Shown here one piece after another: positions 147 to 17,341 of a stretch of 24,875 bases of DNA. The position numbers and the translations under genes were made by a program. Below the pieces are notes generated by a model. It was not told the origin of the DNA, made no database searches, and saw only the letters and a program-made list of their open reading frames with translations. Position 1 is the stretch's first letter. Every line of letters begins with the position of its first letter. The stretch comes from Promethearchaeota archaeon (GTDB taxonomy: Archaea; Asgardarchaeota; Lokiarchaeia; Sigyniarchaeales; SOKP01): positions 1 through 24,875 of the forward strand of contig JBHLNT010000054.1 of the NCBI GenBank assembly GCA_048941265.1, in the 5' to 3' direction.

Positions 147-1868
147 ATGGAATATCAAAAATTAAATGATAAGAAATATTCAGTAATAAATACTAGAACC
201 CATTGGGAATTTTATCTAAGCTTAATAATATTTTGGGGAATATTTTTCATTATTCTCTATTATTCAATGAGTTTAAATAACGGAAATATTATTTATTCTT
301 TAGATGATTGCTATATTCATATGGCTATAGCTAAAAATTTTTCACAATATGGGATTTGGGGCATAAATAAAGATAAATTTTCATCCACATCATCATCATT
401 ACTCTATACACTATTACTATCTCTAATATTTTTTATAATTGGCCCTAATGAGCTAGTCCCCCTTATATTAAATCTTATTTTTGCCAACTTTTTAATTTAT
501 CAAGTATATGAAATCGTTAAAATCAAAAACCAGCTACCTCCCTACGCTACTTTTATATTATTATTATCAGTAATTTTCTTTCTACCGCTGCATTCATTAG
601 TTTTTATAGGTTTAGAACATACTCTTCAGATTATCATAGATTTATATATGATTTTCATTGCTGTAAGAATTTTATCTGATGGTCATTTACAATTGAATAA
701 ATATAGTTTAAATAGAGATAAATGGACATTACTATTAATAGGTCCATTAGTATCAATGGTTAGATTTGAAGGTATGTTCATTATAGTAATAATTTGTTTT
801 TTATTTTTACTTAGAAAAGATTATAAATACTCAATAATGATAGGAAGTATAAGTTTTCTTCCCATCATTATTTATGGTTTAATTTCCTTATCTCATGGAT
901 GGTTTTTCTTTCCTAATTCTGTAGTGGTAAAAAGTGCACTTTTAGATTTCAATTCTTCATCCCTAGATAAAAAAATTAAAATTTTTGACCCAATGGGTAT
1001 GTTTTACTATGCTCCCCATTTATTAATATTCTTTTTAGGAGCATTATTAATTTTTTATATTCATTGTTTTAATAAAAAAGATATTTGGAATCAAAAAGCA
1101 TTAATAGCAATAATTTTTATAGCTACATCAATATGTCAAATATTCTTTGCAACAGTCTCTCTAAAGGGAATTTATGGCTCAAGATATGATGCTTATCTAA
1201 TTTGTATAGGAATTATTCTAATATTTATATCAATTTCAAAGCAGTTACCCCAGAAACTTTCATTTGATATTCTTAAAAATTATTTTTTTAAGAGAGAAGA
1301 TAATTTAGAATATTCCTTTTTAAGGTTATTAACTATAATTCTTATAATTATTATTTTTTATACACCTTTAGTTCATCGTGGAATTGAAACAATAGAAGAT
1401 ATTCCTCAAGCTACTAATAATATTTATGATCAACAATACCAAATGGGACTTTTTCTAAAAAAATATTATAATGAGAAATGTATTGCTGCAAATGATATTG
1501 GTGCAATAGATTATCTTACTGATGTTAAATGTGTGGATTTATGGGGATTAGGAGATATAGATACAGCAAAAGCAATAATTAATGATGATCTGGATAATGA
1601 AACTATTTATGATATAGCAAAAAAGAATAATGTCATAATTGCAATTATTTATGAATCCAATTATTTTGGGTATGAGATACCTACTGAGTGGATAAAGGCG
1701 GGTCAATGGACTATTAGCGATAATAGAGTATGCTATTCTAGTAAAGTTTCTTTTTATGCTGTTGATACGGAAAAATATGATGCATTAATTAATAACCTCA
1801 AAGATTTTTCTTCGTTCCTCCCAAATACAGTAAAAGAATCTGGAAATTATACAGAATCAAATACTTAA
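147..1868 (+). CDS. GT-C fold membrane glycosyltransferase, AftB/GT89-related (polyprenyl-phospho-sugar dependent)
   Basis: 573 aa with many TM segments. The first external loop reads SLDDCYIHMAIAKNFSQYGIWGINKDKFSSTSSSLLY (acidic DD pair at 53-54). Later motifs VRFEG, FPNSVVVK, NDIGAIDY and VDLWGLGD fall in the order recalled for AftB-like GT-C enzymes. Soluble C-terminal domain. Confidence 0.75.
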   Translation: MEYQKLNDKKYSVINTRTHWEFYLSLIIFWGIFFIILYYSMSLNNGNIIYSLDDCYIHMAIAKNFSQYGIWGINKDKFSSTSSSLLYTLLLSLIFFIIGPNELVPLILNLIFANFLIYQVYEIVKIKNQLPPYATFILLLSVIFFLPLHSLVFIGLEHTLQIIIDLYMIFIAVRILSDGHLQLNKYSLNRDKWTLLLIGPLVSMVRFEGMFIIVIICFLFLLRKDYKYSIMIGSISFLPIIIYGLISLSHGWFFFPNSVVVKSALLDFNSSSLDKKIKIFDPMGMFYYAPHLLIFFLGALLIFYIHCFNKKDIWNQKALIAIIFIATSICQIFFATVSLKGIYGSRYDAYLICIGIILIFISISKQLPQKLSFDILKNYFFKREDNLEYSFLRLLTIILIIIIFYTPLVHRGIETIEDIPQATNNIYDQQYQMGLFLKKYYNEKCIAANDIGAIDYLTDVKCVDLWGLGDIDTAKAIINDDLDNETIYDIAKKNNVIIAIIYESNYFGYEIPTEWIKAGQWTISDNRVCYSSKVSFYAVDTEKYDALINNLKDFSSFLPNTVKESGNYTESNT

Positions 1869-2120
1869 AAAAATTATTATACTTTATTCCAAATTATTTA
1901 CATATTTTATACCAAATACCTCTATCGAATTATAAACATCGAAAAAATTCAAATCAAATTTTTGACTTTAAATAAACGACATTTAATAAGAGATTTTCAA
2001 AAATTAAAAATCTTAGATTTTTTTAATATCAAGTTAAAAAATTTATTTAGATTAGAGAAATAGTAAAAGAGTAATCAATTGGTTTTGAAATTATAATAAT
2101 ATTTTATTAATTTCAAGATT

Positions 2121-2128
2121 TTTATAAA
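2121..2128 (+). promoter_or_regulatory. Candidate archaeal TATA box (TTTATAAA) for the GT4 at 2162
   Basis: TTTATAAA begins 41 nt before the ATG, the same offset as the TTTATAAA before the ATA start at 23672. The AT-rich background makes this weak. Confidence 0.3.
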
Positions 2129-15693: not shown

Positions 15694-15739
15694 CGATTTA
15701 TTTTAATTAAAATTGAAATAGGACTTAATAGATAAATAG

Positions 15740-17341
15740 ATGTTAAACGTACAAAAAAAAGTGGCAGAGAGCAGCAGTTTTTTTCTCTTAACTGTCTATT
15801 TAACTTTCTTTTTCAGTATTTTAAATACATTTGTGCTCGCAAGATTGTTAGCCCCGGAAGAATGGGCTTTATTAATTTTGACAATTGCATTTATTAATAT
15901 AGCAATTTTTTTCAGTAATCTTTTTCCTCCAAATGCTCAAGACACAATAATGTATTATATACCACATCTTTCAAGTAAAGGCAGTGAATATGCGATAAAA
16001 CGGAGTTTTATAATACATGTTTATAAAATAAGATTATTTAGTGGTTTTCTTATTTTTCTATTTTATTTATTTATCGCAAATTTAGCCGGTTTTAATCCAG
16101 TGTTATTTGAAATGATTTTAATTACTTCTCCGATGATTTTATGTAAAATCATAATTGACCTTAATGACTCAGTTTTATATGCTTTTCAAAAATTTAAATC
16201 AGTATTTATTGCAAGAGTCATAAATCCAATAACTATTACTATATTTAATTTCATAATATTTTTCTATAAAATAAAGAATCCTATTTTTTTTATATCATTT
16301 GCTTTTCTATTAGGCACGATTGTTTCTTGCATTATGTCAATAGTCTTAATAATAAAATTAATCTCTTTTAGAATAAAAAAGGATTTATTACCATTAAATC
16401 AAAAATCAGAGTTTTATTCAGTACATAAAAAGTACGGCATAAATTTAATCTTAGCTGATATATTTGGTCTGCTAACTGGTTTAATCATAAATTTATTATT
16501 TTTAGAGTTTGAATTCATTATATTTATTACTTATATCACTATATGCCAAATTTCAGTAACATCCGCTTTACTCTTTGCTAGTTCAAATCCAGAAGCTTAT
16601 ATTTCAATTTTTTCAGAAATAGACTATGAAAAAAACTCTGAAAAATATCTGCAAAATTTTTATAAGCTAAATAAATTTTTAATGATGTTTGTTTGTATCA
16701 TTGTGGGAATCATGCTTTTTTACATAGAGTTTTATATCGTTGTTATATATTCCCCAACATACCTTATCCTATTAGCTCCACTTCGTCTTTTTTTATTTAC
16801 CACATTTGCTTTAGTAATAGTCAACAATCTTATGATTATAACATTATCTACAAATAATACTAAAATCAATGCGGAAATTAATTTTATTAGAATGGCAATT
16901 AATATTTTATTCACATTGATAGCACTACTTTTTTTTGACTTTTATATTTTGATTATTTTTTATTTAATCAGTTCTTATCTCATGACTTTTATAGCCGTAT
17001 ATTTAATTAATAAACAAACAAGTTTAAAGTTTAGATTTGTAATGTTTTTCCAACCATTTATTATATTTATAGTTAGTTTTCTAATCGTCTATCCATTAAA
17101 TTATATTGTTAATATTACCACTTTTGATAAGGCATATATTAATTTCTTTATCAATGGTACGATTAAGTTTACTATTTTTGCCCTAGTTTTTTATATTTTA
17201 TTTTATTTTACAAAAACGATAACTAAAGAAGAGTTTAATGATATGATAAAGATTATTCCAATCTTAAATTCAAAAAATTTCTTGATAAAAAAAATTGTGA
17301 AGAAAATAGAATTTTTTCTTCCTTCTGAACAAAATGAATAA
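15740..17341 (+). CDS. Second oligosaccharide flippase (Wzx/MOP superfamily)
   Basis: 533 aa with about 14 TM segments. KKVAESS..FVLARLLAPEEWA, central HKKYG and ISIFSE, plus a C-terminal ITKEE amphipathic tail similar to that of 3606..5213. Confidence 0.82.
   Translation: MLNVQKKVAESSSFFLLTVYLTFFFSILNTFVLARLLAPEEWALLILTIAFINIAIFFSNLFPPNAQDTIMYYIPHLSSKGSEYAIKRSFIIHVYKIRLFSGFLIFLFYLFIANLAGFNPVLFEMILITSPMILCKIIIDLNDSVLYAFQKFKSVFIARVINPITITIFNFIIFFYKIKNPIFFISFAFLLGTIVSCIMSIVLIIKLISFRIKKDLLPLNQKSEFYSVHKKYGINLILADIFGLLTGLIINLLFLEFEFIIFITYITICQISVTSALLFASSNPEAYISIFSEIDYEKNSEKYLQNFYKLNKFLMMFVCIIVGIMLFYIEFYIVVIYSPTYLILLAPLRLFLFTTFALVIVNNLMIITLSTNNTKINAEINFIRMAINILFTLIALLFFDFYILIIFYLISSYLMTFIAVYLINKQTSLKFRFVMFFQPFIIFIVSFLIVYPLNYIVNITTFDKAYINFFINGTIKFTIFALVFYILFYFTKTITKEEFNDMIKIIPILNSKNFLIKKIVKKIEFFLPSEQNE

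Follow-up and report, generated by a model that had tools for sequence, protein, structure and literature searches.

In Mycobacterium tuberculosis, AftA (Rv3792, family GT85, structure 8IF8) is the galactan 5-O-arabinofuranosyltransferase, and all AftA enzymes characterised so far are described as using a lipid-phosphate pentofuranose donor, decaprenyl-P-arabinofuranose (DPA) (PMC10265970). Pentofuranose transfer has also been described for the three-component system of Citrobacter youngae O1/O2, where ORF15 is the PPPRS-phosphatase, ORF14 the MATE flippase and ORF12 a C-fold glycosyltransferase (GT-C) of family GT136; the bacterial systems of this type employ a MATE-family flippase and are reported to tolerate different pentoses (Kelly et al. 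2024, PMC11127046). In the archaeon Haloferax volcanii, a glycan is built in the cytoplasm on dolichyl phosphate (Dol-P) and flipped, and its last sugar is then supplied on the outer side by a Dol-P-monosaccharide that has been charged and flipped on its own: Dol-P-mannose is the product of AglD, AglR takes part in its flipping, and AglS transfers the sugar outside to the protein-bound tetrasaccharide (PMC3871713). Here, we looked at a locus of a Promethearchaeota archaeon that carries an AftA-like gene, ORF9, amid other glycosyltransferase and flippase genes. The stretch of DNA analysed, called the window, is the entire contig C291 (JBHLNT010000054.1; 24,875 bases) of a 5.0-Mb assembly in 361 contigs, estimated to be 91% complete. 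No small-subunit ribosomal RNA was found in this assembly, and no archaeal one was matched. The source-named homologs of three window proteins come mostly from Promethearchaeota, Hodarchaeota, Hermodarchaeota or Lokiarchaeota and, judged from these names, the host is an Asgard archaeon of Loki type.

We consider that the window is probably a low-GC, variable surface-glycan biosynthesis island, common to the four sampled genomes of the host genus (g1), whose sugars are flipped and then decorated outside by GT-Cs from Dol-P-sugars (the sample comprised 251 genomes of the phylum, evenly drawn, and all counts include the genome of the window). Its 17 open reading frames (ORFs; Table 1), 229-848 aa long, cover 90% of the sequence. 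The GC content is 24% overall and lies at 0.22-0.25 across 1-18 kb, against a genome mean of 0.305. An earlier reading made from the letters alone (the sequence-only reading) had proposed a two-stage pathway resembling that of mycobacterial arabinogalactan. The six genes that it named are all present as long ORFs where it had placed them, and its general layout is borne out, with cytoplasmic glycosyltransferases of families 4 and 2 (GT4, GT2), MOP flippases, outward-facing GT-Cs and a lipid-phosphate sugar synthase all encoded. Archaeal hosts use dolichol-type carriers. In the mechanism that we favour, ORF2, ORF4, ORF12 and ORF17 (GT4) together with ORF10 (GT2) would assemble an oligosaccharide on dolichyl (pyro)phosphate from nucleotide sugars at the cytoplasmic side, and its sugars would be tailored by an AsnB-type amidotransferase, a short-chain dehydrogenase/reductase (SDR), an N-acetyltransferase, a carbohydrate esterase family 4 (CE4) deacetylase and a membrane O-acyltransferase. 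ORF3, ORF11 or both would flip lipid-linked intermediates to the outer face. ORF6 would load dolichyl phosphate with a single hexose or N-acetylhexosamine, and three apparently unrelated GT-Cs (ORF1, ORF7 and ORF9) would add side-chain or capping residues outside from lipid-phosphate monosaccharides. The product would presumably be passed to surface proteins by a separate AglB/STT3, for which a gene lies on another contig (C260), or would remain a surface polymer.

The window is collinear with part of the 700-kb contig C10 of a sister genome, G210, in which the counterpart island occupies 250-289 kb. There, the order is GT4, MOP flippase, tailoring cassette, DPM1-like GT2, ORF7-like 848-aa GT-C, AftA, acyltransferase, AftA, GT2, ORF11-like flippase, GT4 and AsnB, and the AftA, GT2 and MOP flippase genes are co-oriented as they are in the window. 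The tailoring cassette differs, consisting of a DegT aminotransferase, a GFO/IDH oxidoreductase and a hexapeptide acetyltransferase in G210 versus a GT4 and the CE4 deacetylase in the window. The G210 island then continues with a GT4, an AsnB-like gene, an AftA, an ORF1-like GT-C, CotH, DUF4956 and VTC, which is the content of contig C170 of the window's own genome; C170 holds another AftA-like gene that is intact (621 aa; 28.1 bits on AftA_C, which exceeds the cut-off), and CotH kinase-like, DUF4956 and VTC-domain genes come after it. Since these contents adjoin in the G210 contig, the window and C170 probably belong to a single island of roughly 40 kb. The two other genomes of the genus, G138 and G144, carry shuffled versions of the island with an extra GT-C of family GT87. 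This GT87 gene (PF09594) adjoins the 622-aa type of AftA-like gene in both (L022:6554-7870 in G138, L023:12489-13805 in G144), while in the window's own genome GT87 genes occur only on C93 and C198. In all four genomes, a distance of 2.3-10.8 kb separates AftA-like from ORF1-like genes, and a DPM1/AglJ-like GT2 of 273-280 aa is found inside the AftA island. Low GC and differing tailoring cassettes are typical of variable surface-glycan loci. A B12-binding radical SAM gene was also seen in the G144 island (L024:3682-5178) and a radical SAM/SPASM gene in G210 (L026:5272-6237), and the G144 island adds methyltransferases and a sulfotransferase; these variants suggest methylated or sulfated sugars.

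Several observations count against the scheme proposed above. The Pfam scan recognised no initiating phosphoglycosyltransferase, polymerase or chain-length regulator in the window, and it is for this reason that the carrier, the acceptor and the destination of the product are, like the sugars and their order of addition, what we infer around gene families and a linkage that are directly observed. The product sugar of ORF6 is not named, the protein being below every NCBIfam equivalog cut-off (92.9 bits versus 325 for AglJ, its best match). Of 14 loci examined for ORF7-type genes, only 3, all from g1, have a DPM1-like GT2 beside that gene. At eight ORF1-type loci outside g1, away from AftA islands, none of the 42 neighbouring ORFs is a glycosyltransferase; ORF1-type genes are thus mostly found outside glycan clusters, and therefore the three GT-Cs need not share one glycan. 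Finally, the DPA used by the characterised AftAs and the presence in this genome of a gene like Rv3806c make a pentofuranose donor possible. The sequence-only reading had also suggested that, in an Asgard host, this would be a new kind of archaeal surface glycan; this goes too far, as the outside addition of Dol-P-sugars after flipping is already established in H. volcanii (PMC3871713).

The AftA-like identity given to ORF9 stands as genuine though distant homology. ORF9 scored 40.5 bits on Pfam AftA_N (PF12250; cut-off 26.7, E 1.9e-10) and 24.7 bits on AftA_C (PF12249; cut-off 25), its C-terminal domain aligning to residues 516-624 of 8IF8. When the single sequence was searched against the PDB, the sole significant match was M. 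tuberculosis AftA 8IF8 (E 1e-6), and with a 39-sequence profile of the family 8IF8 was again the only match (E 5.4e-19), in an alignment that covered the C-terminal domain (480-587) as well as the membrane domain (85-411). In its Atlas model, ORF9 superposed on an actinobacterial AftA cluster with a TM score of 0.87 across 550 residues. In M. tuberculosis AftA, D128 is reported as the catalytic base (D128A and D128N kill activity), R132 as its essential partner and R415 as touching the donor phosphate, while the E134A change of a Ca-binding residue has little effect (PMC10265970). ORF9 D113, R117 and R388 align with D128, R132 and R415, and each equivalent is at least 90% conserved among 39 aligned relatives; the position of E134 is Ala in ORF9. 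By these sequence comparisons, ORF9 is a true member of the AftA family with a catalytic centre predicted to be intact. Gene callers place its start at Met50 (P0005, 554 aa). The 603-aa form appears more likely because full-length relatives conserve residues 1-49 as well, with E21 and P40 invariant.

The 419-bp gap upstream of ORF9 holds the decayed remains of a second, tandem AftA-like gene, detected by the profile (E 5.7e-11, model positions 221-286) with one TAG and one TAA in frame, and with 54% identity by tblastn to residues 221-277 of the 604-aa AftA of G210. It shows that AftA paralogs turn over at this locus, and across g1 genomes the AftA-like genes number one to three paralogs, within the variable glycan island. 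Atlas clusters with AftA_N/AftA_C come from candidate-phyla-radiation bacteria as well as from Actinomycetota. The family extends beyond the known producers of arabinogalactan, and its name therefore does not fix the sugar. NCBI already labels Asgard relatives "arabinofuranosyltransferase". In a literature search of titles and abstracts, we found no paper on Asgard AftA-like enzymes or on archaeal GT85.

We then looked at the genes that arabinofuranose and galactan chemistry would involve. A DPA donor depends on a DPPR synthase, a phosphatase and the DprE1/DprE2 epimerase, of which DprE2 is an unspecific SDR, and a galactofuranan acceptor depends on UDP-galactopyranose mutase (Glf). Glf (PF03275) had no match in the window's genome, with the control detected in four genomes including Corynebacterium glutamicum, and the ALO domain of DprE1 (PF04030) had none either, with the C. 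glutamicum control detected; given 91% completeness, both are likely absent. In consequence, neither a galactan acceptor nor a DPA donor is expected, and the sugar and the acceptor of ORF9 are probably neither arabinofuranose nor galactan. GtrA-family proteins were found on C289 and C29. Beside the GtrA gene on C289 lies an FAD_binding_4 protein that we considered as a DprE1 and rejected: it carries FAD-oxidase_C and Fe-S domains, adjoins LarA and looks like part of lactate/glycolate-type metabolism. The genome has 18 other FAD_binding_4 matches.

A candidate DPPR synthase is also present. Among the three UbiA-family genes of the genome, of which one is of DGGGP-synthase type, the gene at C154:19788-20735 scored 174.3 bits on the decaprenyl-phosphate phosphoribosyltransferase model NF008977 (cut-off 234); the next unrelated subfamily reached 48 bits, and the archaeal DGGGP-synthase-type models stayed far below the phosphoribosyltransferase models. 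In the PDB, the protein matches Rv3806c itself best (8J8J, E 1.9e-19), its NDIRDIEKD falling opposite NDVRDVEAD. The N, D, D and D of this N-D-x-x-D-x-x-x-D motif are reported to be required for activity of the Citrobacter enzyme (PMC11127046). A PHP metal phosphoesterase gene lies 8 bp further downstream in the same orientation, and then comes a DUF362 protein, which has no sequence match in the PDB; on the upstream side, the UbiA gene is preceded by genes for an M48-peptidase fusion, an AglH/MraY-type transferase and a ribophorin I homolog. This region as a whole (C154:17884-27609) is a co-oriented string on the minus strand, made up of the ribophorin I homolog, a Trm112-like gene, the AglH/MraY-type gene, the 838-aa M48 fusion, the Rv3806c-like UbiA, the PHP phosphoesterase and DUF362. 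A route to lipid-phosphate ribose is thus plausible from the gene content of this genome, so that the lack of any lipid-P-pentofuranose route, which the sequence-only reading had named as counting against itself, is not what we see. No route to arabinose is visible, as no epimerase from ribose to arabinose was recognised (no DprE1-type ALO domain).

The AftA-like and Rv3806c-like genes are distributed very differently. The AftA-like profile was found in 4/251 genomes, namely the four sampled genomes of g1, whereas the Rv3806c-like protein was found in 124/251, including 52 of the 54 other genomes of the host family (f1). A scan limited to a motif, across about 185,000 species genomes, located Asgard-type AftA-like genes at eight loci in five metagenome-assembled genomes, all Asgard-labelled, and a collection of 5.8 billion proteins holds about 60 AftA-like relatives. 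The Rv3806c-like gene lies on a contig separate from the AftA-like genes in 4/4 g1 genomes. Their co-occurrence in all four is uninformative because nearly all genomes of the family carry the Rv3806c-like gene, and from the 124/251 versus 4/251 distribution it follows that the usual consumer of that enzyme must be other than the AftA-like protein. The Rv3806c-like gene is not a partner of the AftA island.

These data bear on a different explanation of the locus, according to which dolichyl-P-pentofuranose is the donor from which ORF9, perhaps with ORF1 or ORF7, takes ribofuranose or an epimer of it, for example arabinofuranose. The Rv3806c-like enzyme would make this donor from phosphoribosyl pyrophosphate, the PHP phosphoesterase would dephosphorylate it, and ORF11 would flip it, in the role that the MATE-type flippase has in the bacterial three-component systems. 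This explanation draws on the phosphoribosyltransferase character of the C154 protein with its retained motif, on the adjoining phosphoesterase, on the donor of all the characterised AftAs, on the co-orientation of AftA, GT2 and flippase genes in two genomes, and on the flippase type and pentose tolerance of the bacterial systems. The unlinked phosphoribosyltransferase gene and its far wider distribution speak against it, as do the lack of a recognised route from ribose to arabinose and the DPM1/AglJ-like synthase that every AftA island has of its own, and we regard this explanation as unlikely. Its extension to the Asgard AftA enzymes in general, as pentofuranosyltransferases acting on a flipped surface glycan with ribofuranose or with an epimer made by an unrecognised epimerase (for example the DUF362 protein), and with ORF11 as the flippase of the donor, seems to us rather unlikely.

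For ORF1, ORF7 and ORF11, neither Pfam nor NCBIfam gave a match at E <= 0.01, and searches of the three against PDB sequences gave no significant match. With an ORF7-family profile, the only PDB matches were weak ones to pilus chaperones (E about 0.002), limited to a short stretch at the C-terminus, and we take them as chance. ORF1 and ORF7 were folded with their family alignments (AF2), giving a pLDDT of 88.9 for ORF1 and of 87.8 for ORF7 (pTM 0.91). All Foldseek matches at E <= 0.001 were GT-C glycosyltransferases (11/11 for ORF1, 23/23 for ORF7), and both proteins are, according to these models, GT-C enzymes, in agreement with the third GT-C that had been proposed at ORF7. By hhalign, the ORF1 family matched neither the AftA family nor the ORF7 family (probability below 1% each; the AftA and ORF7 families were not compared with each other).

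The "AftB-like" label attached to ORF1 fails by sequence and by structure. No AftB match was obtained at E <= 10, either by phmmer with the single protein or by hmmsearch with a 40-sequence profile, and by structure AftB, whose chains 9DLH and 9DLF are in the library searched, ranked under six other GT-C families; AglB, PMT, ALG3, ArnT and AftA are among those above it. The ORF1 family counts more than 400 proteins at E <= 0.001, none with a Pfam domain, from sources that include Asgard archaea, a Methanomethylovorans and Zixibacteria, and it shares an invariant motif, Y50-x-x-D53-D54-x-Y56-I57, straight after the first transmembrane helix, with D53 and D54 opening the next helix. In our sample, it was found in 16/251 genomes and 6/63 genera, and no conserved partner was found in the eight loci outside g1. 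In genus g45 (two closely related genomes, which make one observation), an ORF1-family GT-C stands between myo-inositol-1-phosphate synthase and CpXC plus VTT-domain genes (L052:3843-7294, L053:2241-5593).

For ORF7, the top Foldseek matches were STT3/AglB (E 2.8e-7), then DPY19, AftA and PglB. The family has 199 representative relatives, with D250 invariant in a 28-sequence alignment, and occurs in 14/251 genomes, all within f1. GT-Cs that depend on lipid-phosphate sugars have a conserved acidic residue in their first extracytoplasmic loop, for which D53 and D54 of ORF1 and D250 of ORF7 would be candidates. We ruled out ORF7 as the oligosaccharyltransferase of the cell, as it has no Pfam STT3 match and the proper STT3/AglB is on C260.

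The properties of ORF1 and ORF7 also bear on direct protein glycosylation, in which one or more of the GT-Cs would add single sugars from Dol-P-sugar to surface proteins by O- or C-linkage, in the manner of PMT, TMTC or DPY19, while the GT4, GT2 and flippase genes make an independent glycan. The best matches of ORF7 being the protein-modifying STT3/AglB and DPY19, and the ORF1-family genes outside g1 standing away from glycan genes, are what one would then see. All three GT-C genes are nevertheless located within a collinear glycan island in g1, and AftA itself is described as working on a polysaccharide (PMC10265970). Such direct glycosylation appears to us quite unlikely.

In the surface-glycan scheme that we favour, the remaining parts are the GT2 enzymes and the flippases. 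ORF6, which had been called a DPM1-like GT2, is a GT2 and its best NCBIfam matches are all lipid-phosphate sugar synthases (after AglJ, PpgS with 80.5 bits, Dol-P-hexose transferase with 63.5 and ArnC with 45.9), every one of them under its cut-off (370, 375 and 529 bits for the last three). As far as sequence goes, ORF6 resembles polyprenyl-phosphate sugar synthases, which is a likeness and not a named membership. It has a single C-terminal hydrophobic segment (229-248), and its orthologs in G210 and G144 are 63-64% identical and adjoin the ORF7-like gene. ORF10 is likewise a GT2, and here the part of the proposal that does not hold is the WbbL resemblance, which is not specific: the rhamnosyltransferase model TIGR01556 gave 48.5 bits versus a cut-off of 200.55, below EpsD, the best NCBIfam match, with 63.7 bits. 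We also rejected ORF10 as a lipid-phosphate sugar synthase closing a three-component module of AftA, GT2 and flippase, since it has no match of ArnC, PpgS or Dol-P-hexose type and only a weak one to AglJ (E 0.009); its identity to ORF6 is 36%, over the first 89 residues only. As for ORF11, its assignment as a Wzx flippase is confirmed as MOP/Wzx type despite the lack of a Pfam match, by an Atlas feature score of 0.99, with the ten best named matches all in one family or clan (Polysacc_synt clusters), and by a predicted structure with a TM score of 0.80 across 495 residues to Polysacc_synt_3 clusters.

A true arabinogalactan analogue, with a galactofuranan-type core made by GT2s, exported, primed by AftA and capped with arabinofuranose by AftB, could appeal to the AftA homology with its conserved catalytic residues, to the two further GT-Cs and the GT2s of the island and to the Rv3806c-like gene, and is extremely unlikely in a genome without recognised Glf or DprE1-type domain, where ORF1 is not AftB-like, ORF10 is a generic GT2, the Rv3806c-like gene is uncoupled from the island, and the AftA family itself extends to candidate-phyla-radiation bacteria.

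The features of the window are collected in Table 1. Those that fall within the range of the sequence-only reading but come in addition to the genes it had itemised are the first MOP flippase (ORF3), the GT4s ORF2 and ORF4, the CE4 deacetylase, the membrane acyltransferase and the AftA-like fragment. The membrane acyltransferase upstream of the AftA fragment is probably a glycan O-acetyltransferase, and the AsnB-type protein probably serves sugar amidation. The genes of the right flank, from 20660 to 24829, are probably sugar-modification genes that belong to the locus. Among them, the AAC(3)-family gene stands amid sugar-tailoring genes and is under every NCBIfam resistance-gene cut-off (125.6 versus 270 bits); a role as an amino-sugar N-acetyltransferase is more likely than one in resistance.

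Table 1. Features of the window, with Pfam and NCBIfam matches listed at E <= 0.01.
Feature	Position	Strand	Length	Remarks
ORF1 (P0001), GT-C-fold membrane glycosyltransferase, unnamed family	147..1868	+	573 aa	C-terminal alpha/beta domain
ORF2, GT4 (GT-B fold) cytoplasmic glycosyltransferase	2162..3358	+	398 aa	Glycos_transf_1 76.8 bits, also Glyco_transf_4 (Pfam)
ORF3, first MOP/Wzx-type flippase	3606..5213	+	535 aa	Polysacc_synt_3 76.6, Polysacc_synt 60.2, MatE 25.6 bits
ORF4, GT4 glycosyltransferase	5271..6422	+	383 aa	Glycos_transf_1 93.4 bits
CE4 polysaccharide deacetylase	6512..7582	+	356 aa	Polysacc_deac_1 85 bits; best NCBIfam match PgaB-like
ORF6, GT2 of polyprenyl/dolichyl-phosphate sugar synthase type (AglJ/PpgS/DPM1-like)	7650..8471	-	273 aa	Glycos_transf_2 108.4 bits
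ORF7 (P0002), large GT-C-fold membrane protein, unnamed family	8608..11154	-	848 aa	no Pfam match
Acyltransferase_3/HGSNAT-type membrane acyltransferase	11223..12284	-	353 aa	HGSNAT_cat 43.1 bits; Acyl_transf_3 26.9 (cut-off 31); nine hydrophobic segments
Decayed AftA-like fragment	12397..12567	+	57 codons	two in-frame stops
ORF9 (P0004), AftA-family (GT85-like) GT-C glycosyltransferase	12704..14515	+	603 aa	membrane domain and C-terminal domain
ORF10, generic GT2 (GT-A fold)	14671..15693	+	340 aa	Glycos_transf_2 90.7 bits
ORF11 (P0003), second MOP/Wzx-type flippase	15740..17341	+	533 aa	13 hydrophobic segments
ORF12, GT4	17442..18581	-	379 aa	Glycos_transf_1 78 bits; same position in G210; part of the conserved island beyond the range of the sequence-only reading
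AsnB-type glutamine amidotransferase	18812..20611	+	599 aa	Asn_synthase 280.6, TIGR01536 495.4 bits; same position in G210; part of the conserved island beyond the range of the sequence-only reading
393-aa protein	20660..21841	+	393 aa	weak overlapping alpha/alpha-toroid matches: squalene cyclase C-terminal, C5-epimerase C-terminal, LanC-like
SDR reductase	21849..22538	-		adh_short_C2 123.5 bits
AAC(3)-family N-acetyltransferase	22574..23530	-		Antibiotic_NAT 160.3 bits
ORF17, GT4	23804..24829	+		Glycos_transf_1 93.3 bits

No closer relatives of eukaryotes are known than the Asgard archaea, whose cell surfaces have hardly been charted. Our analysis points to one Loki-type genus with a rich set of outward-facing, lipid-sugar-dependent transferases, one family of which is experimentally known only from the mycobacterial cell wall. 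The public label "arabinofuranosyltransferase" rests solely on family membership, in a genome where a route to arabinofuranose or galactofuranose is not recognised. A better lead to an Asgard lipid-linked pentose is the Rv3806c-like gene, which is nearly universal in the host family, though it is not tied to the island. Were the AftA-like proteins pentofuranosyltransferases after all, they would belong to a pathway equivalent to those of mycobacterial DPA and of the bacterial three-component pentofuranose systems, the first of its kind in archaea, and would name one consumer for a phosphoribosyltransferase that about half of the sampled Asgard genomes encode. What is new here is the pathway test for Glf, DprE1-type and Rv3806c-type genes, together with the contrast in distribution between the AftA-like genes (4 of 251 genomes) and the Rv3806c-like gene (124 of 251). 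In addition, two unnamed GT-C families have been given a fold, the AftB label has been dropped, and a collinear island has been traced in sister genomes. The main yield is that an over-specific reading is corrected and that distribution and synteny data are added; no long-standing question is opened.

Compared with the known systems, ORF1 has no sequence match to mycobacterial AftB (Rv3805c; 9DLH/9DLF) and belongs to a widespread family that is mostly found outside glycan islands. ORF9 has in common with M. tuberculosis AftA a probable two-domain layout, the catalytic Asp together with its partner Arg, and the Arg that contacts the donor phosphate, and differs from it by its distance in sequence, by the Ala at the E134 position, and by its place in a paralog-bearing variable glycan island of an archaeal genome without recognised Glf or DprE1-type domain. 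Like the Citrobacter system, the locus has a GT-C next to a flippase of the MOP/MATE superfamily, in a genome with a PPPRS-like UbiA that keeps the essential motif and has a phosphoesterase beside it; unlike in Citrobacter, the PPPRS-like gene is unlinked to the island, the phosphatase is of PHP type and not HAD or PAP2, the GT-C is GT85-like and not GT136, and no epimerase was recognised. The same types of parts as the AglD/AglR/AglS module of H. volcanii are found in the window, with ORF6 (whose best NCBIfam match is AglJ), ORF3 or ORF11, and ORF1, ORF7 or ORF9 in the corresponding places, which is a likeness of logic and of part types. In contrast to the Haloferax module, the Asgard locus has three predicted outside transferases of three apparently unrelated GT-C families, one of them AftA-type, together with two flippases.

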